This document shows, piece by piece, positions 8,218 through 33,638 of a stretch of 43,263 nucleotides of DNA. Both the position numbers and the translations under genes were made by a program. A model generated the notes under the pieces. It was given only the letters and a program-made list of their open reading frames with translations, ran no database searches and had not been told where the DNA came from. Each line of letters starts with the position of its first letter. Within the stretch, counting starts at the first letter, position 1. Source of the stretch: a virus. The stretch lies in IMG/VR virus record IMGVR_UViG_3300009431_000882. One strand, 5' to 3'.

Positions 8218-9575
8218 GATTTCGACAGTACTTAGAACAAGCAGAAGATGCCAAAACGATGCGGGCTCATATCCCCCTCGACCCGGAAGTTTACGTCCTA
8301 AAGAACTTGTTTGACAAGCACGGTCACGATCTGCGAGTAGTCGGCGGGGCAGTACGAGACTTCTTAACACACGTCTACCGAGGCGGTAATGGGTCGAAAT
8401 ATAAGCCAAAGGACATCGATCTAGTGACACCCGCTCCACCAGACGAAATTAAGGCGGTCATCACAAGCCAGGATGCTGAGGAGAAAGGCATCCACGATCT
8501 TCCAATTGGAGCAGCTTTCGGTGTCATAGCAGCGGTCTTTCCTAGACGCACGAATGATCCAAAAGAAAAACCACCTATGTATGAAATTGCCACTTATCGA
8601 AAAGACATAGGCGCTGGACGACGCCCTGATGCAGTAGAATACGTCTCAGATGCAACACATGATGCGAAACGACGTGATCTAGCGTACAATGCCTTATACT
8701 ATGACGTTCCTGATAAGCCCGGCGAGGAAGGGATTCTTTACGATTACAGCGGTGGCCAAGGATTCGAGGACTGTAAAACCGGTTTTCCTCATTTTGTTGG
8801 CGAGCCGCTTGAGCGTTGTAGAGAAGACAACCTTCGTGTGATGCGATACATTCGTTTTCTCTCCAGAGGACACGTGGGCGGACCAGAGGTCGTCGAGAGA
8901 GAAGACGCCAAAGCAGCGGAAGCCCTGCGACAATTTGCCAGTATGCCAGGCGTTTCGTCCGAAAGAATCATAGCCGAGTTTCTATCTGGCCTGAAATCAG
9001 CACTTGATCCGGTCAACTACCTACGTACGCTTCATCATTTTGGCATAATGGACCGCATGTTCTCCAATCTTCAAGTTAACACCAAGTTTCAGAACCTCAG
9101 AACGCTTGGTTCAGGAGACATGGTAAGGAATCCCCGGATCGTTTTGGCCTACATCCTAAAAGACAATCCACCTGAGACCCTAGGCCAGGCGCTACAGACG
9201 CTCAAATTCAACAGTCCCCAAGAAGCTGGTAGATTGGTAGAAGGCATTGTGTTTCTAGTAAGTTTGCAAAATCTCAGCACCGACACGGCTACCGGTCTTT
9301 CAAAGACTAGAGACAAACTACGGCCAGATGTAAGGATGCCTGATCCTAAAGCTAGAGAGAGCTTTATCTCTCAACACAACGACGAAATGAGAGCCTGGGC
9401 CGCTCTACTTAAACTAGATCAGAATACAATGGCTGACTTCACTCGCTATGAACGAACTATCAGAGGAACCGACCCTCGATTCGCCGGTTTGCAAGGCAAA
9501 GAGTTAGGAAAAGCAATCAAAGACGCTGAGCAAGAAGCCTTTGTTGCGTTGTCGAAAAAGAAGAAAAAGAGGTAG
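8214..9575 (+). CDS. CCA-adding tRNA nucleotidyltransferase / poly(A) polymerase family protein (class II head domain)
   Basis: Motifs LRVVGGAVRDFL...DIDLVT, YEIATYRKD, RRDLAYNALYYD and EDNLRVMRYIRFLSRG match the class-II nucleotidyltransferase head and neck. The start is reassigned to the ATG at 8214, which overlaps the upstream stop. The track ORF begins at 8118. Confidence 0.75.
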   Translation: MRFRQYLEQAEDAKTMRAHIPLDPEVYVLKNLFDKHGHDLRVVGGAVRDFLTHVYRGGNGSKYKPKDIDLVTPAPPDEIKAVITSQDAEEKGIHDLPIGAAFGVIAAVFPRRTNDPKEKPPMYEIATYRKDIGAGRRPDAVEYVSDATHDAKRRDLAYNALYYDVPDKPGEEGILYDYSGGQGFEDCKTGFPHFVGEPLERCREDNLRVMRYIRFLSRGHVGGPEVVEREDAKAAEALRQFASMPGVSSERIIAEFLSGLKSALDPVNYLRTLHHFGIMDRMFSNLQVNTKFQNLRTLGSGDMVRNPRIVLAYILKDNPPETLGQALQTLKFNSPQEAGRLVEGIVFLVSLQNLSTDTATGLSKTRDKLRPDVRMPDPKARESFISQHNDEMRAWAALLKLDQNTMADFTRYERTIRGTDPRFAGLQGKELGKAIKDAEQEAFVALSKKKKKR

Positions 9576-9576
9576 A

Positions 9577-10296
9577 ATGTTCCGTAGGTATTTTGTCACA
9601 GAGGAAACTCGAAAAGAAAACATCGTAAAGATCGACATCTTTGATTTCGATGACACTCTGGTCTACACCCCTACCGAAGACAAGGCCGCTCGAATCATAG
9701 CTCGCTATAATCACAAAGCTCAGGATCAAGGTAAAAGGCAGTTCAAACTCAAAGAAGATGAATACTACTGGTACAACCCACAATCGTTAGAACCACCAGT
9801 GGTGCCTAAGCCTACGCCATGTGCTATGTTGAACCAAAAAGTGGCACAGGAATTCTATGCTTCGCAACGAGACCCTAGCTGCCTCACTGTACTACTCACA
9901 GGCAGACCACCAGAATTGCGAAAACACATACAACGGGTTCTTGATGACTTCAAACTAAAGCCAGATCGTTTCTACCTGATGCTTAAAGGCCACCAGGTAA
10001 TGCGAAAAAAGGTCGACCGGATCGCTAAACTACTCGATGAGTTCCCACAGATAGAAGAAATCGCACTGTGGGATGATAAAGGCCCAGATCGAGCTAAACT
10101 GATTGGGAATCCCGATGAGAACCATATAGCGGACTTCAGACGATTTCTTAACATCTGCAAGGCAAAACGGGAGCGGCGAGACCCAAATTGGAAACTCAAA
10201 ATCAAAGTAAATGAAGTGCCGCCCCGTGATGAAGAGTCAGTGAAACTGCTACTACAACAGAACCCTGACTACGGAAACGCAGAAAAGAAGCGCTAG
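9577..10296 (+). CDS. HAD-superfamily phosphatase, resembling the T4 polynucleotide kinase phosphatase domain
   Basis: Motif I DIFDFDDTL (DxDxT), motif II LLTGR and motif IV WDDKG, in the same order as T4 Pnkp (FDVDGTL, VSGR, IDDR). The ATG lies 1 nt after the stop of the CCA-enzyme gene. RBS AAGAGG. Confidence 0.6.
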   Translation: MFRRYFVTEETRKENIVKIDIFDFDDTLVYTPTEDKAARIIARYNHKAQDQGKRQFKLKEDEYYWYNPQSLEPPVVPKPTPCAMLNQKVAQEFYASQRDPSCLTVLLTGRPPELRKHIQRVLDDFKLKPDRFYLMLKGHQVMRKKVDRIAKLLDEFPQIEEIALWDDKGPDRAKLIGNPDENHIADFRRFLNICKAKRERRDPNWKLKIKVNEVPPRDEESVKLLLQQNPDYGNAEKKR

Positions 10297-17095: not shown

Positions 17096-17289
17096 CGGAG
17101 GTGGATTGACAAAGGTTCTTGCCGCCCGCCCCGCACCCAGTGACGGGGCGGGCGGCGGCGGAGTCAATCAGACCTGGGTTTTCTAGTCATCCGGTCAATA
17201 AGGAGTCTTTCAGCTTCATGGATGCGAAGGCAACAGCCACCTAACTAAACCTTTAATCACGGTGGGCTGAAAACAAACGCTTTCAGGGC

Positions 17290-17434: not shown

Positions 17435-18541
17435 TAACGAACACATGTGGCCCCTGGGAGTTGGGACCGTTGGAGCGCAAGCAACGACCTAACCACTCCC
17501 TGGGCCGCTTTTGATCTTTGACAATTTGGTGAAGCGAGTCCCAACATCATAATGCTCTTCAGCATATGATGGCCTGGCAAACTGAGATTTGTGGGACACT
17601 CGATTGGAAAGAAAGACTGGGCTGCTCCAGTGGGTCAGTTTTTTCAACCTCATCCAGGGTGATGAGCCCAAAGGTGAGTAACCAGCGAGGACAAAACCCT
17701 AATCCGCAAGAACGGGGTGGGAGAACTGTCAAGGTTCTATGTTGAAGGATATAAGCGGTCCTTCCGTAAGGATTGATTGTCGAAACCAGCAACGGAACTC
17801 ACAAACAGGCATCGATCAGTTAAGGGCGGCAGAAGGCTATAAAGTTGCCATCATAAGAAGGACCAGAAATGGCCTGGAACGATGTTGGTTGTGGAAAAGC
17901 CTCCAAAAGAACTCGGACACAAGCAGTATTGCTAAGCAGCGACAAAGAGAGTCTCCAAAGCCAATCCGGCTAAACTTGTTCTGGTAACAGAAAAATCGGT
18001 GTCGGAACGGTGCCGATTTTCTCCTAAGTTGCTCTGCGGGAAACAGCGAGGACACGTCGGCCCTAACAGACGGACAGGAAAACGTGGAAACCGCATCTAT
18101 ACGTCGAGCGGCCAACACGCCCTCCCAGAACGATGGGATGATACTGTAGCAAGTATCGAAAGTCTGTGAGCCTAGTGGACATCAACCACTTAGAAACGAG
18201 GTAGAAACCTAACTACCAAAAAACAATAGGAGGTTGTGGGAACTCATAGTTTGGGTACGAGCGGATGGCAGCAACTTCGGGACAAAGGCCCGACCCCTTG
18301 GTGACAGAGGGAATCGGCTTGACTACCGGAGAAGTGAAAATCCAATCACAACCAAAACACGAGCCACAGCTATGCCACTGGCAGGTACCACGGTCGTACG
18401 CAGCGGCCGTTATACGGTGGCCTCAAAAGGGCCAGCAGACAGACCTGGCAGTAATGACGTATTGGACAAAGCGCATGGGACTCACGATACTTGATTTGTA
18501 GGTGGATCAAACTGTCTGTGGATCGAGTAACTGTCTGCGAG

Positions 18542-18579
18542 AAAGCCCCGGCACTTCGGTGTTCGGGGCTTTCTTTTTG
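18542..18579 (+). terminator. intrinsic terminator (AAAGCCCCG-gcacttcggtgtt-CGGGGCTTT, then CTTTTTG)
   Basis: GC stem followed by a T-tract, on the plus strand only. Confidence 0.65.
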
Positions 18580-18709
18580 CGCCGACCGCAATGCTAGCAC
18601 AGTCATAAGTGCTTGTGGCAGCCGTTCTTAACTCGCCTTGACCGAATTTTCATTTTCTGCGATGATGCTGCCAATAAGCACCTAACAACCACGGGAGGGA
18701 GACCAGGAA

Positions 18710-18952
18710 ATGACTAGCGACGATATCCGGTCACGATTGGTCCAGGTCTGCACAGACAATCTGGGCATTGATGAAGATTAACTGACCACCACCGGCGCAA
18801 CATTCAAGTCTCTGGGGGCCGACTCCCTAGACCTGGTGGAAGTTTTCATGGAGACGGAAGAAGAGTTCGACATCAACATCCCCGATGATGATGCCGAAAA
18901 AATCACGTCCTTCGACCAACTCCTCGCATACGTCCAGGAAAAGTCCGAATAG
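18710..18952 (+). pseudogene. acpP: acyl carrier protein (ACP) gene interrupted by an in-frame TAA at codon 24
   Basis: RBS GGGAGGGA 9 nt upstream. The translation [79 protein letters not shown] carries the DSL phosphopantetheine site and an overall ACP fold pattern. The single TAA at 18779..18781 sits where E, K or Q is expected. Confidence 0.6.
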
Positions 18953-18966
18953 GAGCAGAGAACCAA

Positions 18967-19386
18967 ATGGCTGCGGATTTTGCAGAACGATCACAAACAG
19001 TGTTGCAAGTGGCCCAGCGGTTATTCGACACCGATCCAAAACCGGATTGGGTCACGTTCTTCCGTGAAATCATGGGAGTCGAAGGGGCCATCGTCAAAGA
19101 ATTTCCTGGTGCAAATGAAGCACGGCAATTCGAGCAGACTGACGCATACAGTCAGATTCAGGGCATGGTGGGCCAACTTCGCACCGACGAGTTGGAACAA
19201 ACCGCTGGCGAAAAAACCCAAACGATTACACCACGGGTACCCGTTAGCCTCCATGTGGCTCTCAAGGCGGAGGTAAAGCAATTGAAGGATAATGGGCGTC
19301 CGGGTATGAGCCTCAACAGGCTCGTGATTACCAAATGCCTCGCTCCGACGAGGCCCGAGTTATTGCCGCCCAAAGCTAACAGCTAG
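18967..19386 (+). CDS. hypothetical protein, 139 aa
   Basis: SD AGGAGCA. ORF with normal composition. A stem-loop follows the stop at 19383..19417. Confidence 0.5.
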   Translation: MAADFAERSQTVLQVAQRLFDTDPKPDWVTFFREIMGVEGAIVKEFPGANEARQFEQTDAYSQIQGMVGQLRTDELEQTAGEKTQTITPRVPVSLHVALKAEVKQLKDNGRPGMSLNRLVITKCLAPTRPELLPPKANS

Positions 19387-21186: not shown

Positions 21187-21527
21187 TGGGAGAGTTCAAA
21201 CGGCGGATCATTCTGGAGGCCCTCAGAAAGGGGACTGCTAGAGAACTGGAGGAATTGGGGGAGCAAGATGGAAGGGACGCTTTAGGGGTTTACGACCTTA
21301 TCGACGTGGAAATGGTTCCCCTGGAAACTGAAGTTAAGAAGACATTGAGGAAGAGACGACAAACGCATCATACGATAACAATTCTCTCACGCATGTTCGC
21401 CCGAATGGTCTTGTTGGCGGAAAGGTGCCTTACCGATCAGGAGGCAACAGAGTTAATGACTCGGTTGGGCATGAAACGAACCTCACCCAACGCAGTGTTG
21501 GATAGTACGGAAGAGGCCACTGATTAA
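21186..21527 (+). CDS. hypothetical protein, 113 aa
   Basis: ORF, coupled to the upstream small ORF. Confidence 0.5.
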   Translation: MGEFKRRIILEALRKGTARELEELGEQDGRDALGVYDLIDVEMVPLETEVKKTLRKRRQTHHTITILSRMFARMVLLAERCLTDQEATELMTRLGMKRTSPNAVLDSTEEATD

Positions 21528-23668: not shown

Positions 23669-24547
23669 TTAGTCAGCGATGACATTTTTGATGTAGTCTT
23701 CCAGACGATGTGTTGGTTCCCAGCCTAAAGTTTCTTTCGTGTACTCGATATCGGCCAACGTATGATCTGCTTCGCCCGGCCTGGCTGGGATATATTCGAT
23801 CTCGCACCCCTCGAACAGTGTCGCCACTTCATTGATTGAATGGTTGCGGCCCGTACCAAGGGCAAAGACCTCTGCTCTCCACTCATCTCTACGCAAAAAC
23901 TCCTCAATGGCGATCAGCCCATTTACAATATCCGCCACGTGAGTGAAATCACGCCGCTGCTCACCAGTCCCTGTGATTGTGAGAAGTTTTTTATTTCGGC
24001 GCTGTTGCTCGAAAACCCCTATAACCGTCGAAAAAGGACCAGTCTCAATTTGACGAGAGCCGAAGACATTGAAGAAACGAGCTACTCCTGTACGTAGATC
24101 ATAGACTTTGTTGTACATCTTGCACGCTTCTTCGCCCAACCATTTCGCAAAAGCATAAGGATTGATGTACGGATCAAAGTAGAAGGTACTCGATCCAGAG
24201 TAGATGAACCGAGCATCCATCTTCCTTGCTACGTCCAACATGGCCACTGTTCCGAAGGCATTATTCCAATATGTCTTAACAGGGTCATCAAAACTCGGCT
24301 GGATGCGTGCCATCGCTGCTAAGTGGAAGATTGCATCATACTTGTCTGGCAACTTATACAATTCATCAACGAATTGCATGGGCTCAATGATGAGTTGAAA
24401 GTTATCTGACTCTTTAGCTTCGGTGAGATTCTCTTCTTTTCCCGTAGACATATCGTCTAGTGCATGAACAACATGGCCCTCCGCTAGCAACTTGTCTACT
24501 AGATGACTGCCAATGAAGCCCGCCCCACCAGTTACCAAATATTTCAT
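23669..24547 (-). CDS. NAD-dependent epimerase/dehydratase (extended SDR family)
   Basis: N-terminal Rossmann motif MKYLVTGGAGFIGSHLV. YAFAK (YxxxK). The start is set at the ATG at 24547, with GGAGGAG 6 nt upstream. The track ORF continues upstream to 24895. Confidence 0.8.
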   Translation of the reverse strand: MKYLVTGGAGFIGSHLVDKLLAEGHVVHALDDMSTGKEENLTEAKESDNFQLIIEPMQFVDELYKLPDKYDAIFHLAAMARIQPSFDDPVKTYWNNAFGTVAMLDVARKMDARFIYSGSSTFYFDPYINPYAFAKWLGEEACKMYNKVYDLRTGVARFFNVFGSRQIETGPFSTVIGVFEQQRRNKKLLTITGTGEQRRDFTHVADIVNGLIAIEEFLRRDEWRAEVFALGTGRNHSINEVATLFEGCEIEYIPARPGEADHTLADIEYTKETLGWEPTHRLEDYIKNVIAD

Positions 24548-24661
24548 GCAAATCTCCTCCATCCTATCATAGTGCTGTTTTGCTCTTCCTTGGCGCAGAG
24601 TTTTCTGTAGAATCGGCACGCACAATGGCCACTTTTTATCCGTAAACCTCGGAGTTAAATC

Positions 24662-25933
24662 ATGCACGGTCCAACCGAACTGCGACAAGTGAAGAACTTT
24701 ACCGTTGCCCTCACCCCATTTTCCACACCCGTTATCGATGCTCGTGTGATTGTCAATGCCGGGTCCGCCGACGAGGCCGCCGACCAATGGGGCACGGCTC
24801 ACTTCCTCGAACACATGTTCTTCAAAGGAACCACAAAACGAGATTACAAGGCTATTAACAAGGTCACGTCTCGACTTGGCCATGTGAACGCCCATACGTC
24901 AACACATGGCACGGCGTATGAAATTCAGTTCCTACTAGGCGACATCGCCGAGGCGATTGAAGTTCTCATGGAAATGGTGTTCCTCCCATCCATGCCCGAG
25001 GAAGAAGCGAAAAAGGAAACCGGCGTCATCGTCGAAGAGTGTCAAATGTATCTCGACGACCCACACGCCTTCTTCTGGAACAATACAGAACAACATATCC
25101 TCGGAGACCAACATGGGCATTCCGTCATCGGTACCATCGAGAGCATCCAAGCAACCACCGTTGAAAAGATGCGCCAGTTCCGCACAACACATTACACGCC
25201 GGGTAATATGTTGATCTCAGTCGTCGGCAACATCGACTTCGATGAACTCGCCGCCATCCTTGAACAGCATTTACCCGACCTGCCTGACGGTGAACGCAGC
25301 CAACGGTGGGAACCAACCTTCGACTGGGATGACCACGACTTCACCCATAAGGCCAAACAAGCGATTGTCGCCCTCGTCGCCAAAGGGGCCACGCTTGAAG
25401 AATGTATTGCCAACAAGTGGGCAGTGGATGTCTTCCGCAACGCTCTCGGCGGTGGGGCTCACTCTCTGCTCTTCGACCGACTGCGAGAAGAACTCGGTCT
25501 GTGTTATCATGTGGGCGCAAGCCACTGGTCAAAGGGCAACCTGGGCCTGTTCGTTGTGCTGACAATGCTGGATGAAGACAACATCCAACTCGCCGTCGAC
25601 GAAATCAACAAAATCATCGCCAAGGTACGACAAGAGGGCTTCACCGATGAAATCCTCGAAATCTCCAAGACGAACCGGCTGTTCACCGTGGCCAGAGCAA
25701 TGCAGACCAGTACAGCCATCAACTACGCCGTCGAGGACTATTTCCATCTTGACAACACCTCGTTGACGGAGTACCTGTCATTTGCCGACCGACGCACGGC
25801 CATCGAACTGCTCACCAACGACGATATGATTGAGGTGGCTCGTACCTTGTTAGGCGAAGACGAACCCGTGAAACTGTGTCAGATGACACAACTTGCGCCG
25901 GAAAGAGTTTACGTCGACCCAGACGATAAGTAA
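24662..25933 (+). CDS. peptidase M16 (pitrilysin/insulinase) family zinc metallopeptidase
   Basis: The inverted zincin motif GTAHFLEHMFFKGT (HxxEH) is present. The downstream architecture and the 423-aa length fit M16. SD GGAG. Confidence 0.8.
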   Translation: MHGPTELRQVKNFTVALTPFSTPVIDARVIVNAGSADEAADQWGTAHFLEHMFFKGTTKRDYKAINKVTSRLGHVNAHTSTHGTAYEIQFLLGDIAEAIEVLMEMVFLPSMPEEEAKKETGVIVEECQMYLDDPHAFFWNNTEQHILGDQHGHSVIGTIESIQATTVEKMRQFRTTHYTPGNMLISVVGNIDFDELAAILEQHLPDLPDGERSQRWEPTFDWDDHDFTHKAKQAIVALVAKGATLEECIANKWAVDVFRNALGGGAHSLLFDRLREELGLCYHVGASHWSKGNLGLFVVLTMLDEDNIQLAVDEINKIIAKVRQEGFTDEILEISKTNRLFTVARAMQTSTAINYAVEDYFHLDNTSLTEYLSFADRRTAIELLTNDDMIEVARTLLGEDEPVKLCQMTQLAPERVYVDPDDK

Positions 25934-25999: not shown

Positions 26000-26647
26000 A
26001 TGAATAAGAAAAAGAAGAACAACAAGCATGGGGCGAAGAGCGAAGGGATTATCGCCGCCATCTTCGGAAAGAACACGCCACCGCTGGGGCGATCCCCAGC
26101 GGTGGCGTTGTGGAATCCCAAGTTCGCTCATAACGTTGGGACGGCGCTCAGGGCCTGTTCTTGCTTCGGCATCAAGCAACTATGGTTTAGCGGGGACCGG
26201 GTAGAGATTGACTTGGGCGGCAAGAAACGCTTGCCCAGAGAAGAGCGCATGAGAGGTTATCGAGATGTCGAGCTTCGGCAATTCGACACCTTCTTTGACC
26301 AATTCGACAATGCGGTTCCCGTAGCCATCGAACTTCGTGATAGCGCCGAACTTCTCCCCGATTTCCAACATCCCAACAATGCCCTCTATGTCTTCGGCCC
26401 GGAAGATGGTAGTCTACCAGGTGTAGCACTAGGTCACTGTCACCGCTTCGTAGTGATCCCCACCCACCACTGTACCAACCTGGCCGCTGCGGTTTACATT
26501 GTGTTATACGACCGCCTCGTGAAGCGGATCGCCGAAGGCAAGGAGGAGAAGCGGACCCTCAAGGAATTCCTGCATGAGCACCGAGGTTTCGTACAGGCGG
26601 GGGATGATGTTGCCTGGCAGAAGGGAATCAGAGAAACCAGATGCTAG
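26000..26647 (+). CDS. SpoU/TrmH-family (SPOUT) RNA 2'-O-methyltransferase
   Basis: Motifs NVGTALRACSCFG, LYVFGPEDGSLP and IPTHHCTNLAAAVYIVLYDR match the three SPOUT motifs. Confidence 0.75.
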   Translation: MNKKKKNNKHGAKSEGIIAAIFGKNTPPLGRSPAVALWNPKFAHNVGTALRACSCFGIKQLWFSGDRVEIDLGGKKRLPREERMRGYRDVELRQFDTFFDQFDNAVPVAIELRDSAELLPDFQHPNNALYVFGPEDGSLPGVALGHCHRFVVIPTHHCTNLAAAVYIVLYDRLVKRIAEGKEEKRTLKEFLHEHRGFVQAGDDVAWQKGIRETRC

Positions 26648-27930: not shown

Positions 27931-28491
27931 GTGAAGAAATCCATCGTATTCCTACTTGGACTCGCCGCCGTCAATGTGATGTTCTTCTTCGTGGCCTTGA
28001 GCTACGATAACGCCGAGATCGAACTGCGCAACACAATCCTGGCTAAGCAAAAGACCAACGAAGCGTCGTTTGACACAATGTGGAAGATACTCAAACAACA
28101 GGCCAGCATTCCCGATAAGTACAAGGAGGACTTCAAGGAAATCTGGCCCGACCTGATCCGGGGCCGCTACGAGCAAGGCAGCGGCAAGATGATGAACTGG
28201 ATTCAGGAGCATAACCCCGAGTTCAAAGGCGGGGAGATGTACATGAAGTTGATGGACAGCATCGAGGCCGAGCGTAAGAGGTTTCTGCGAGATCAAGAAG
28301 AACTCGTCCAACTCAACACCGAACGCAACAACATGATCCAGAAGAAGGTGCCCAAGTTCTTCCTGGGCCTCGTCGGTGGTGAAGAATCCCTCAAGCCCAT
28401 CGAGATCGTCGTCATCACATCCGAAGTCACGGAGCAGACCTTCGAGAGCGGGAAGGAAGACAACGTAGACTTGTTCAGTTCACCGGGGTAA
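27931..28491 (+). CDS. hypothetical membrane-anchored protein
   Basis: GTG at 27931 with GAGAAGGA 9 nt upstream. N-terminal TM helix. The track ORF begins at 27859. Confidence 0.45.
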   Translation: MKKSIVFLLGLAAVNVMFFFVALSYDNAEIELRNTILAKQKTNEASFDTMWKILKQQASIPDKYKEDFKEIWPDLIRGRYEQGSGKMMNWIQEHNPEFKGGEMYMKLMDSIEAERKRFLRDQEELVQLNTERNNMIQKKVPKFFLGLVGGEESLKPIEIVVITSEVTEQTFESGKEDNVDLFSSPG

Positions 28492-28495
28492 AGAA

Positions 28496-29095
28496 ATGCC
28501 ACACGGCACGGCAGCATACATCAGCGACCCCGTCGCCAACGCATTTGATCTGACGAGAGACCTACAACAGTGTAAGGTACTGTTTGTCACAGGCGAGAAC
28601 TGCGATTCCTCCTATTATCTTATGGCTCCCAAGTTGGCAAAATACATCCGCTTCACGGCCCCCGGCACTCACTATCCACTACACGGCCTGTCAGTAGCCT
28701 GGCGTTCTCCCGAAGGTGACGAAGACCCAGCAGAAGCGTTGATATGGGTAGAGAACCGTTTGCCTGATGCCAACCACTTGAAGTTCAACGGTTTCCCAGA
28801 GAAATGGGATTTCAAAGCACGTTTCGCACAAGAGACGCAAGAACTCGACGGAATGGTGAGACAAGGCGCAGCCCATGTTGTCGCTAATCGAAAACGCTTT
28901 GAAACGTTGCTGTGCCTCCCAGATGTCGCTCTGGATAGGTATCATTCCATGTTAGCGGAGGATTACTCCGGTCTTACGTTGGCCGACGACGAAATCACTG
29001 ACTTGCAACTATCCGATGACAGCGACCAAACCCTACGTGCCCTAAACCTCTCTGACGAAATGATCGCACGCATTCACCAACTAAAACAGCCATGA
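28496..29095 (+). CDS. hypothetical protein, 199 aa
   Basis: ORF. Its stop overlaps the next start (ATGA). Confidence 0.5.
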   Translation: MPHGTAAYISDPVANAFDLTRDLQQCKVLFVTGENCDSSYYLMAPKLAKYIRFTAPGTHYPLHGLSVAWRSPEGDEDPAEALIWVENRLPDANHLKFNGFPEKWDFKARFAQETQELDGMVRQGAAHVVANRKRFETLLCLPDVALDRYHSMLAEDYSGLTLADDEITDLQLSDDSDQTLRALNLSDEMIARIHQLKQP

Positions 29096-30282
29096 TAATC
29101 TACTCGCTCTTCCTAATCCCTTTCTTCGTAGCTGCTGTCTTGTGGCTGCTGTGGGGCGAGCGCACAGCCTGGTGGGAAATGCTCATCATATTGATCGTGA
29201 GCACGCTCCTCATCATCGGGACCAAGTTTGGCGTTGAATACACCCAGGTATCCGACATCGAATACTGGACGAACAAAGTAACCAAAGCCGAGTACCACGA
29301 AGGATGGACCGAAGAGTGGTACACCAACGAAGACATCAAAGACAGTAAAGGAAGGGTCACGGGCACCAGGCGAGTGCGCCATACCAAACGCCACCCGCCT
29401 GAATACTATCTCATTCTCCATCCCAGCGGCAAAACGTCCGTCAGCCGCTCCGTCTACCGGAAAATGGCCAGCAAGTTCGGGAATGAGAAAGAGAAAGACT
29501 TGTACCACTCCGGTCAGTGCTCGTGGGGCGACGGTGATATGTACTATTCGGTCTTTCGTGGTGCCCGAGATAAAATGACCGTTGCCACCACCGAACACCG
29601 ATACGAAAACCGGGTACGAGTTGCCAAGACTGTCTTCGATTTTCCAAAGGTCACGGACAAGCAGAAGAAAGACTACCGGCTTTTCGATTATCCCAAAATC
29701 AACGACCCCACTACCATCCCTAGCATCTTAGGCAATGGTGGACCAACCCTGGTTGCCGCCAACAAAGAATTGTGCCGCCTCAATGCCGAACTTGGTCCAC
29801 GTGGTAATCACCGACAGGTGCGCCTGTGGGTACTCATCTGGCAGAACCAGTCTCTCGACGCCGGTATGCTTCAAGAAGGGTATTGGTTTGGCGGCAACAA
29901 GAATGAATTGGTGGCCTGCATTGGCACCGACAGTGAATACAACGTGAAGTGGGCTTATGTCTTCTCCTGGTCGGAAGAGGAAAACCTGAAGATCGATATC
30001 CGCAGCTTCATACGCAAACAGAAGAAACTCGACCTAGTGCCCATTGTCGATATGATGGGAGAAGAAGTCGAGAAACAATGGATTAGAAAACAGTTCAAAG
30101 ACTTCAGCTATCTCACCGTCGAGCCGCCGTTGTGGGCCTTCTTCACATCTGGGGGTGTGATCTTACTTATCAACATCGGTATCAGCCTGTGGGTCGTTCT
30201 TAACAGCTACGATGCCGACGGCCAACGACACCGCTTCCGTTACCAGCCACGATGGAGAAGAAGGAGAATACGAAGGTGGTGA
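29092..30282 (+). CDS. hypothetical membrane protein, 396 aa (two N-terminal TM helices, one C-terminal)
   Basis: Long ORF, translationally coupled to the upstream gene. Confidence 0.5.
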   Translation: MIIYSLFLIPFFVAAVLWLLWGERTAWWEMLIILIVSTLLIIGTKFGVEYTQVSDIEYWTNKVTKAEYHEGWTEEWYTNEDIKDSKGRVTGTRRVRHTKRHPPEYYLILHPSGKTSVSRSVYRKMASKFGNEKEKDLYHSGQCSWGDGDMYYSVFRGARDKMTVATTEHRYENRVRVAKTVFDFPKVTDKQKKDYRLFDYPKINDPTTIPSILGNGGPTLVAANKELCRLNAELGPRGNHRQVRLWVLIWQNQSLDAGMLQEGYWFGGNKNELVACIGTDSEYNVKWAYVFSWSEEENLKIDIRSFIRKQKKLDLVPIVDMMGEEVEKQWIRKQFKDFSYLTVEPPLWAFFTSGGVILLINIGISLWVVLNSYDADGQRHRFRYQPRWRRRRIRRW

Positions 30283-31586: not shown

Positions 31587-31616
31587 TTTAGCAAGAACTA
31601 AGGATTGGATACGAAA

Positions 31617-33638
31617 ATGACTAGGACAAAACGTCGACTATTGTTGGAGTCGCTGGAAAAACGGGAGTTGTTGACGGGAGCGACGTATCACTACGACACT
31701 AACGGAGACGATCTAGTTAATACGTTAGATATCGTTGCGTGTATTAAGGAGATTGATGAAAACGGTATTGGCCCTGTCGAAGAAGCAAATAATCCACTTG
31801 TTGATATCAACCAGGATAGAGTAATATCAACGCTTGATGTACTGGTGGGTGCGACGGAGTTAGGTCGAAGACATCACAATCCAATAGAAGTCGAAGCTAG
31901 AATCTGGGGCGAGTTGTACGAAGATAATAATGGTATACCAGGAGAACCACTGCCGTTGACACCGAAGCCGGGGGATTATGCAGTGCGGGTAGGGGATTCG
32001 TTCTTTCTAGCTGTGATGGTGCAAGAGAACTCAGACATCAACGGATTTAACCGGATTCATCTCAACCTGGAGTGGTACAATGAGTCGCTTCGGGCAAAGG
32101 CTGTAGATGAGGTAATTACAGAACATTTTACGGAAGACCACACCGGCAGTGTTAACAATCATGTAGGAGTAAGTGGCGTAGTTCTAAACCTCGGCGCATC
32201 GGCTGGCGAAAACGGCAGACCGATTGGCGACAACCAACCTGAAGTGTTTGCGATGTTGCAGTTCGAGGTGGTAGGCATTGATCCGGCAGGGCTGACGCCA
32301 ATTTGGTTGACCGAGGGGGAGGACGGGATAAACCCAGACCTCGAAATAGAGTTCGATCATCCGATTATTCGAGCCGAAACTACAAGGACCAATGATGACA
32401 TTTGGGAAGTACCTCAGTATTACAAAAATGCTCCCCCGCCTTACGATTCATCACATTGTGTAGACTGGGGCAACTTCTTCGTAAACCTTTGGACAGACGA
32501 AGATGGTCGTCCAGGAGAATGGATTGCTGACGATACAGTCAAACCTGGCGATCTATTTTGGGTCCAAGTTTTGGCCCGTGAATGCGATCCGATGCGAAGT
32601 GGTTTTCAGGGCTTGGCAATGCATTTCAGATGGGATAGTGAAATCTTAGAATTATACTATCCATTTGATCCTCAGTATGTGTTGGACAAAAAACACATTT
32701 ATCCTTCTCACCCCCGTGTTTCTACATGGCTTTCTGAAGATCAAACCGGCGTGCTTGATAATGAAGCCGGAACGCTAGCTAATCTCGGCGGCCAGCCTCC
32801 GCAAGGCAAAATGTTTGCCGATGATATCCAAGGAGACCCAAAGAGAGTGGCGACGTTGCTATTTGAGACTATTGCCACTGGAGACACTGGGATTACCATT
32901 ACCGACGTAACAACCAACCCAACGCCTGATACGTTAGATATTCGGGACATTAGTTTTACCATTATCGACAGCGAAGTCCCCGAACAGCCCAACCCGCCCA
33001 CGTATTACCCCAGACCAGGAGCGCCGCCTAATGAAGTGTATCTTCAAGCATATGAATATACGGTTCCTTGGTCTACTGGAATAACAGCGGGTGAACGTCC
33101 AGGGTATCAAATTCTCAATGGTCAAGTCGGACTTGGTGAGAAGTTTTATGTAACTGTGCTGGCCAACCATGCGGATGTTGGTTTTGATGATTTTCGTGTA
33201 TCTCTTCAATGGGACGCTACCAAGATAAAAAACATCAATGATTCATTTGAGGCGTCCAAAGCAATTACTCCGCATTTGCCTTTGTTTGATTTCGCACGCA
33301 GATATTATCATTCCCGAAGAGACGGGATATTAGGAAATCTTGGCGGCTCTGCATTTACTGCATTTGGGGTTGGTAGAACCATTGGTAACTTAACGCCAGA
33401 ACCGTTTGTTTGGTTGCCGTTTCGAGTGAAAGAAGATTTACCAGAAGGCCCATCTTTCCAAGTTCGCAGTTACACTGATCCTTTCACGGTTTATAACAGC
33501 TATTGGGAAGATGACGTTTTAGTTACACCGTTTCACATGAACAGGGGCGCAATTGTTCCGCAACCCGTTGCTAACTGGCACCGAGAGCAGTTGTTCCTTG
33601 AAGATCAACTTATCCGAATAGAGATGTGGGAAGAATGA
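31617..33638 (+). CDS. secreted protein with a Planctomycetes-type N-terminal motif and dockerin-like repeats, about 673 aa
   Basis: The N-terminus MTRTKRRLLLESLEKRELLTG is the Planctomycetota secreted-protein leader. Two dockerin-like repeats follow: DTNGDDLVNTLDIVACI and DINQDRVISTLDVLVGA. Confidence 0.6.
   Translation: MTRTKRRLLLESLEKRELLTGATYHYDTNGDDLVNTLDIVACIKEIDENGIGPVEEANNPLVDINQDRVISTLDVLVGATELGRRHHNPIEVEARIWGELYEDNNGIPGEPLPLTPKPGDYAVRVGDSFFLAVMVQENSDINGFNRIHLNLEWYNESLRAKAVDEVITEHFTEDHTGSVNNHVGVSGVVLNLGASAGENGRPIGDNQPEVFAMLQFEVVGIDPAGLTPIWLTEGEDGINPDLEIEFDHPIIRAETTRTNDDIWEVPQYYKNAPPPYDSSHCVDWGNFFVNLWTDEDGRPGEWIADDTVKPGDLFWVQVLARECDPMRSGFQGLAMHFRWDSEILELYYPFDPQYVLDKKHIYPSHPRVSTWLSEDQTGVLDNEAGTLANLGGQPPQGKMFADDIQGDPKRVATLLFETIATGDTGITITDVTTNPTPDTLDIRDISFTIIDSEVPEQPNPPTYYPRPGAPPNEVYLQAYEYTVPWSTGITAGERPGYQILNGQVGLGEKFYVTVLANHADVGFDDFRVSLQWDATKIKNINDSFEASKAITPHLPLFDFARRYYHSRRDGILGNLGGSAFTAFGVGRTIGNLTPEPFVWLPFRVKEDLPEGPSFQVRSYTDPFTVYNSYWEDDVLVTPFHMNRGAIVPQPVANWHREQLFLEDQLIRIEMWEE

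Follow-up and report, generated by a model that had tools for sequence, protein, structure and literature searches.

What does a TAA codon mean inside an otherwise well-preserved gene for an acyl carrier protein (ACP): is it a stop, a codon that is read through, or an artifact of assembly? The question is raised by positions 18710-18952 (plus strand) of the IMG/VR virus record IMGVR_UViG_3300009431_000882, a stretch of 43,263 nucleotides (nt) that we refer to as a whole as the window; coordinates are window positions unless another locus is named. The codon probably arose by a recent ochre nonsense mutation, now fixed in the population sampled, that struck an accessory ACP gene of a large phage. 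Within this explanation we infer the recency of the mutation, the loss of function and the phage nature of the element.

An ACP gene interrupted by a single ochre codon

The open reading frame (ORF) comprises 81 codons including the in-frame TAA and translates to an 80-residue ACP with one interruption. A Shine-Dalgarno (SD) motif, GGGAGGGAG (18693..18701, plus strand, like all elements of the gene), can be read from the sequence 8-11 nt 5' of the ATG. Codons 1-23 (18710..18778) encode helix I, MTSDDIRSRLVQVCTDNLGIDED; codon 24 (18779..18781) is TAA, with C as the next base; and codons 25-80 (18782..18949) encode helices II-IV, including Asp38-Ser39-Leu40, both coding segments being assigned by translation and domain match. 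The natural stop, TAG (18950..18952), ends the ACP where its homologues end. Ser39 (codon TCC, 18824-18826) is the predicted phosphopantetheine attachment site, and the DSL column is invariant in our alignments A1 and A5. The frame does not run uninterrupted to this serine; the TAA at codon 24 lies upstream of it.

With X at the stop, the Pfam family PP-binding (PF00550) matches over profile positions 2-67 of 67 (E = 7.8e-11; 42.5 bits, cut-off 20.8). With Glu placed at the stop, the protein barely passes TIGR00517 (74.2 bits, cut-off 70.45) and NF002148 (76.7 bits, cut-off 71), where ordinary AcpPs reach 104-129 bits. The column of the stop in a gapless alignment of 31 homologues holds Glu in 19, Lys in 9 and Gln in 3, and in 83 other ACP loci it holds Lys (45), Gln (29), Asp (4), Glu (3), Arg (1) or Ala (1), with no in-frame stop found in any of the 83. 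The window gene keeps its residues at 24 of the 27 columns that are invariant in the 31 homologues, its SD and ATG are intact, and it has no frameshift. The coordinates, DSL motif, gene length and expected residue (Glu, Lys or Gln) given in the original prediction, which had been made from the sequence alone, are all borne out by the translation, the PF00550 match and the 31-homologue alignment.

Both halves of the gene show the codon usage of this genome in the ACP frame; the C-terminal half stands at the 99.9th percentile of real-gene windows, and the adjoining noncoding DNA falls below every gene-like value. An ACP domain that lies in frame on both sides of a single stop, with genomic codon usage in both halves, makes a chance ORF impossible. 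Under standard decoding, the 23-residue peptide of helix I is the sole product expected, and codons 25-80 are translated only if ribosomes pass the TAA. A fragment with Ser39 that would arise by reinitiation or from an alternative start was considered and rejected, as the frame offers no ATG, GTG or TTG from the TAA up to Ser39; the first in-frame start codon past the TAA is GTG at 18836, after Ser39, and a nearby ATG at 18771 is out of frame and ends after 4 codons.

The scanned ORFs of the window contain no domain of a partner enzyme (FabD/G/F, phosphopantetheinyl transferase, adenylating enzyme or acyltransferase). The closest ACP homologues are, among the matches listed, 46-54% identical and are housekeeping AcpPs in fabG-acpP-fabF clusters.

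The stop recurs in separate assemblies

Two further contigs carry the same TAA: Ga0117909_1016378, from sample 3300009320, and Ga0117908_1096896, from sample 3300009314. The window is a third assembly; it differs from Ga0117909_1016378 by one mismatch in 11.8 kb, at 27940, and this one-base difference indicates that the assemblies are separate. A 34-residue fragment called from the broken ACP gene is found on 4 contigs. None of the six intact ACP variants that a single substitution would give (Glu, Lys, Gln, Tyr, Leu or Ser at the stop) occurs in ~15 billion proteins, and no ACP homologue above 54% identity was found among the matches listed. A metagenome scan with the ACP returned generic ACPs alone among the matches listed, without the source contig, and is thus silent on near-identical strains. 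The allele evidence consists of assembled contigs from one nearly clonal population, in samples that are possibly related. The stop at 18779 is real and reproducible, and a random sequencing or assembly error at this position is very unlikely; a systematic error, or an intact allele at low frequency, is conceivable. A simple sequencing error had been among the candidates of the original prediction; the identical TAA in the two further samples and the fragment on 4 contigs speak against it.

Orthologues are intact and paired with an RHH gene

The closest syntenic relative of the window is L137 (JGI 3300037110), to which L138 (Logan SRR11596275) is identical; synteny extends from the noncoding region through the ACP gene, an RHH gene, several small genes and the M16 peptidase gene to PyrB. 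The ACP gene of L137/L138 (start ATG 1583 in L137) is intact, encodes 111 residues and has GAG (Glu) at codon 24; its product is 38% identical to the window ACP by tblastn and 39% identical in alignments A2 and A5. Codons 1-23 of the window gene are homologous to the N-terminus of this protein, MESDAIRDRLMKIC, with codon usage that favors the ACP frame, and L137 has GGAGGA at the place equivalent to the SD of the window gene. The ACP of L224 is likewise intact (83 residues), with ATC (Ile) aligned with codon 24. The ortholog comparison proposed as a check on the original prediction has thus returned sense codons in both orthologues, and the stop is not conserved. A further relative, L222 (on a 137.7-kb scaffold), has an 81-residue ACP gene call that is cut by the edge of the fetched locus.

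The partner gene in the window (18967..19386, plus strand) encodes 139 residues with an RHH/Arc-like C-terminus, and its homologues adjoin ACP in relatives: an RHH homologue directly follows the ACP gene in L137 (48% identity), L222 and L224. L141 (IMG/VR UViG_3300028840_003924, 136 kb) has the RHH gene and no ACP. The two genes overlap by 65 nt in L137 (1854-1918), where a C-terminal extension of ~30 residues carries the ACP over the start of the RHH gene, by 14 nt in L222 (56-69) and by 1 nt in L224 (7823), which suggests translational coupling in the relatives. In the window (at 18950-18967), a gap of 14 nt separates them and the GGAG of the RHH gene overlaps the ACP stop codon; with the gap and a GGAG of its own, the RHH gene need not fall silent when ACP translation is lost.

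The ACPs of the window, L137 and L224 share Cys14, a core Phe shifted one position before GxDS (Phe32 in the window) and [ST]-F at 67-68, features that are absent from canonical AcpPs, so that most departures of the window ACP are clade signatures and not decay. To judge from these sequences, the ACP is most likely an accessory phage gene that is paired with the RHH gene in related phages. The suggestion in the original prediction that the stop had struck "one of several ACP paralogs" presumes a cellular genome and does not suit a contig that is most likely part of a large phage with an accessory ACP.

Searches for additional orthologues were made through the RHH gene. As an anchor in GTDB genomes it gave 44 loci, none with an ACP within 6 kb, synteny or DNA similarity, and this route was dropped; an RHH profile used for further clade members in IMG/VR recovered the contig of L141 alone. 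A phage origin of the ACP sequence itself was also considered and rejected, catalogued phage ACPs being 36-50% identical and no closer than cellular AcpPs.

The window as a probable part of a large phage

Eleven genes of the window are collinear with L141, which is viral according to IMG/VR. A 396-residue protein (29092-30282) matches phrog_2087 (E = 7.7e-43) and has relatives at 94% coverage in a 595-kb uncultured phage, in Lak phages and in Tenacibaculum phage pT24, with further matches in Erwinia jumbo phages and Bacillus phage G. Phage G also has an M16 peptidase. Relatives of the M16 peptidase of the window (24662-25933, plus strand) are graded in identity (67%, 52%, 48% and lower), and stretches of 21 kb in more distant relatives hold 14-23 tRNA genes. 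This peptidase is very divergent, as are PyrB (34827-35741), a CCA-adding enzyme (8118-9575), a HAD RNA-repair domain (9541-10296) and a SpoU methylase (26000-26647). The best match of PyrB among 5.8 billion proteins is 47% identical, and its profile score is 239.4 against a cut-off of 236.95; most other window enzymes score far below curated cut-offs. No capsid, portal or terminase was found among the ten largest window ORFs (PHROGs) or the scanned ORFs (Pfam), and an exact-pattern search of IMG/VR did not return the contig itself. Gene content and synteny suggest that the contig probably derives from a large uncultivated phage.

A Planctomycete chromosome was considered because the protein at 31605-33638 weakly matches Planc_extracel/dockerin and because RHH gene homologues (38-50% identity) occur in 44 metagenome-assembled genome contigs of Mariniblastus, Pirellulaceae and other Planctomycetota, which show neither a nearby ACP nor synteny. 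We dropped this assignment given the 47% match of PyrB, the viral synteny and the jumbo-phage marker. The Planctomycete affinities may point to the host.

We note two other loci, L139 and L140 (JGI 3300041085 and 3300041077), that encode an M16 relative at 48% identity, have a GC content of 40% and are not syntenic with the window. They are phage-like, with many small same-strand genes, a Pfam Gp23 match on a 103-residue product and five tRNA genes, of which four are for tRNA-Arg.

TAA is a terminator in the window

The 44 main ORFs of the window are terminated by TAA (16), TGA (15) and TAG (13). TAA ends the epimerase gene 4 residues past its domain (profile position 331 of 332) and also ends the M16 peptidase gene, and ORF statistics gave no TAA-specific gain that would mark it as sense. 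In a stop-masked six-frame tblastn of the window against L137, L139 and L141, 18779 was the only stop that breaks a same-frame alignment with a relative reading through. TAA is thus a normal terminator in the window, not a sense codon. The original prediction had held that TAA is a genuine stop elsewhere and reassignment unlikely, a view that the 16 of 44 ORFs and the terminations at domain ends uphold.

Two other positions were examined as read-through candidates and rejected. An amber read-through at the terminus of the RHH gene (TAG 19384) came from tblastn extension; blastp similarity ends before this stop, and the next stop is 8 codons on. A conserved read-through at the same-frame junction at 21525 was also considered; L137 has TGA followed by a GTG start there, which makes it an ordinary boundary.

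Read-through and suppression

UAA is the least leaky of the bacterial stop codons, and UAA followed by U is the strongest termination signal (PMC5289835). The C that follows the TAA in the ACP gene also follows TAA in 5 of the 16 ordinary TAA-terminated window genes, and the window has no surplus of back-up stops after TAA over the chance expectation. We found no stimulatory RNA structure downstream of the stop (fold of 18760-18880, z = 0.46 versus shuffled sequences). Programmed read-through, another candidate of the original prediction, is therefore unsupported: the codon is the least leaky one, the downstream fold is unremarkable and the stop is not conserved.

No tRNA genes were found in the 43-kb window with ARAGORN and Rfam. 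L137 encodes a suppressor tRNA (17871-17942, plus strand) with the anticodon CUA (amber), which scores 58 bits versus 29 for Rfam tRNA and carries the ARAGORN label "tRNA-Pyl". The 29 called genes of L137 end in TGA (15), TAA (9) and TAG (5), and its conserved genes are without in-frame TAG; this locus may represent an intermediate state of standard code plus suppressor. Gaining a suppressor tRNA has been put forward as a step toward recoding, and the recoded phages described reassign TAG or TGA (bioRxiv 10.1101/2021.08.26.457843). None of the 10,754 jumbo-phage genomes covered by a survey was found to recode TAA (PMC13037316). It is quite unlikely that the TAA of the window is read by a phage ochre suppressor tRNA encoded elsewhere, in which case ACP would be made only when that tRNA is expressed.

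Origin of the stop

In the explanation that we favor, a recent nonsense mutation, codon 24 would have become TAA in the window lineage from a sense codon probably one substitution away, likeliest GAA, AAA or CAA. Ribosomes would start at the intact SD and ATG, terminate after 23 residues and release a short peptide without Ser39, so that, apart from the trace amounts that leak past any UAA, no functional carrier protein would be made; the RHH gene, with its own ribosome-binding site, would still be expressible. Among the candidates named in the original prediction this is the best supported, as the orthologues are intact and the rest of the gene is undamaged. Several points weigh against it. 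Phage genomes tend to purge dead genes, yet TAA is the only allele in all four contigs; a gene that is tolerated or still of use could show the same pattern. L137, the closest syntenic relative, encodes a CUA suppressor tRNA, so that suppression is part of the biology of the lineage; the known sequence is 43 kb, and an ochre suppressor tRNA (UUA) could sit elsewhere in the genome. As the samples are possibly related and the population is nearly clonal, the "independent" assemblies sample one lineage and give contig-level alleles. Nor can "recent" be dated, because the nearest ACP orthologue is 38-39% identical.

The alternatives differ in what they make of the codon. It might be decoded usefully, by a phage ochre suppressor tRNA or by a near-cognate tRNA-Gln, tRNA-Lys or tRNA-Glu, so that ACP would be conditional (e.g., made late in infection) and the gene an early or isolated case of recoding. 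The suppressor tRNA of L137 is consistent with this, as are the 14-23 tRNAs per 21-kb stretch in related phages, the CCA-adding enzyme, RNA-repair HAD domain and SpoU methylase encoded in the window, the otherwise pristine state of an ACP gene in which TAA is the only allele seen, and the place of suppressor tRNA acquisition as a proposed recoding step (bioRxiv 10.1101/2021.08.26.457843). However, the suppressor of L137 reads TAG and not TAA, and in the window TAA is the commonest terminator (16/44), undepleted and without surplus back-up stops. By the tblastn comparison with L137, L139 and L141, no other window gene has an in-frame stop, and the one in the ACP gene is not conserved in its orthologues. 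Useful decoding is unlikely also in view of the 43 kb without a tRNA, the lack of a stimulatory structure, the low leakiness of UAA (PMC5289835) and the absence of TAA recoding from all 10,754 jumbo phages (PMC13037316). Reassignment of TAA to an amino acid throughout the genome has nothing in its favor beyond the single in-frame TAA; with TAA closing 16 of 44 ORFs, among them conserved enzymes where the domain ends, no gain from reading TAA as sense and no other alignment running through a TAA, it is exceedingly improbable.

Two further alternatives leave the genetic code untouched. If the stop were a sequencing or assembly error, the true codon would be GAA, AAA or CAA and the gene intact; such a miscall, if systematic and tied to the sequence context, would reappear in each assembly of one nearly clonal population from samples that possibly belong to the same project. 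Against this, the same base appears in at least three assemblies and in at least two samples besides that of the window, the local sequence GATGAAGATTAACTGACC has neither a homopolymer nor extreme GC, a real single-nucleotide polymorphism at 27940 was resolved, and no intact version is present in the protein collection, which together leave an error very improbable. The stop might instead be one sign of long relaxed selection in an old decaying pseudogene or an already nonfunctional ACP-like remnant. The product is an outlier, with a mean identity of 47% to homologues that are mutually 65.5% identical; it departs from them at 3 of the 27 invariant columns and at 3 of the 5 that are near-invariant, barely passes the AcpP cut-offs and has no partner enzymes in 43 kb. 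Yet the odd residues are common to the intact L137 and L224 orthologues and are thus clade features, all other proteins of the contig are equally divergent (PyrB, with its 239.4 bits against 236.95 and best match of 47%), and the gene has a single lesion, no frameshift, an intact SD and an in-frame codon bias at the 99.9th percentile. Old decay is, on this evidence, decidedly unlikely.

Relation to known systems

The ACP gene resembles an ordinary ochre pseudogene of a nonessential accessory gene in having a single stop one substitution away from sense, intact orthologues and no recoding signal. It is unlike one in residing in a probable large phage, where dead genes are usually short-lived, and in that the interrupted form is the only allele across samples.

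Programmed read-through is known from phage Q-beta, in which read-through of UGA extends the coat protein. Known cases use a leaky UGA or UAG, conserve the stop and its context among relatives, and yield short and long products that are both functional. The window gene shares with Q-beta a stop inside a continuous frame with a meaningful protein downstream; it differs in that its stop is UAA and unconserved, and its 23-residue product has no plausible function.

The recoded phages, with TAG read as Gln (code 15) or TGA as Trp (code 4) in Lak and crAss-like phages, are similar in being a large-phage lineage, in the CUA suppressor of L137 and in having a stop through which alignments continue (bioRxiv 10.1101/2021.08.26.457843; PMC9523058; PMC13037316), and Lak phages include relatives of the window protein at 29092-30282. 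In contrast to the window, with one stop and with TAA as its commonest terminator, they contain numerous in-frame stops and avoid ending genes with the recoded codon. The codon in the window, moreover, is TAA, which is unreported as recoded in phages (PMC13037316), and the 43 kb contain no cognate suppressor.

Compared with AcpP-type ACPs (TIGR00517/PF00550, including those of Achromobacter phage Motura and Brevundimonas phage Bajun), the window protein has the same length of ~80 residues, DSL serine, acidic helix II and full PP-binding match. It differs from them in lacking nearby fab or partner genes, in being paired with an RHH gene and interrupted by a stop, and in its own clade signatures.

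The premature stop alone carries little weight, and the gene is best annotated as a pseudogene, neither "corrected" nor read as a new code. Its context is worth more: a barely sampled clade of large phages with a conserved ACP-RHH pair, a candidate noncoding RNA (ncRNA) that adjoins the pair in two members, and an amber suppressor tRNA in one. If the TAA turned out to be suppressed, ochre recoding would have its first case in a phage, and with it a view of how recoding begins.

A conserved ORF-free region upstream of the ACP gene

Upstream of the ACP gene lies an ORF-free region of ~1.1 kb (17441..18585, plus strand) that promoters, a terminator and conservation mark as a putative ncRNA. Four near-consensus tandem sigma-70 promoters (16998, 17068, 17290 and 17406) precede it, and a strong intrinsic terminator (~18540-18580) closes it. 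The region is collinear with positions ~390-1524 of L137, in the form of short, highly conserved blocks, with flanking proteins that are 38-52% identical. Its fold has z-scores of -3.3 in the 5' part and -2.6 in the 3' part versus shuffled sequences. The region has no match in Rfam, also at a permissive threshold, or in catalogued phages, and it is absent from L141, the fetched part of L222, and L224. We considered whether the upstream 1.7 kb might be decayed fab genes and rejected this, as six stop-masked frames gave no Pfam match at E up to 1 and the plus strand has no coding signal. The region at 17441-18585 is likely a novel large phage ncRNA. The proximity of the ACP gene to an ncRNA locus, remarked on in the original prediction, is real, and the ncRNA-ACP-RHH arrangement is common to the window and L137, the one relative in which it is conserved.

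Downstream of the terminator, a weak sigma-70-like promoter candidate for the ACP gene (18638..18666, plus strand) consists of TTGACC, a 17-nt spacer and GATGAT, with TG; it matches the consensus at 9 of 12 positions, and its function, which consensus match alone suggests, is putative.

Near the upstream promoters, at window positions 17108-17166, four contigs from three samples terminate (at 17108 and 17132) or start (at 17152 and 17166). This segment holds a GC-rich inverted repeat, GCCGCCCGCCCCGC...GCGGGGCGGGCGGCGGC, and the contigs probably break here because assembly or coverage fails at a strong hairpin.

Other features of the window

The window also encodes a 953-residue protein (2518-5379, plus strand) with the major-vault-protein "shoulder" domain (PF11978, E = 3.6e-13); two other samples contain identical copies of this protein. 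A circularly permuted YpsA SLOG-family protein (42246-42755, plus strand; PF12694, E = 1.8e-31) adjoins a TrkA-C-domain protein (41297-41992, plus strand); SLOG domains are often tied to nucleotide signaling or conflict systems. The longest ORF of the epimerase (23669-24895, minus strand) overlaps the start of the M16 peptidase gene (24662-25933, plus strand) by 234 nt, and the product called by JGI is shorter (297 residues). That the first 74 epimerase residues look conserved in L137 and L139 is an antisense echo of the conserved M16 coding sequence, so the real start of the epimerase is probably internal to this ORF.

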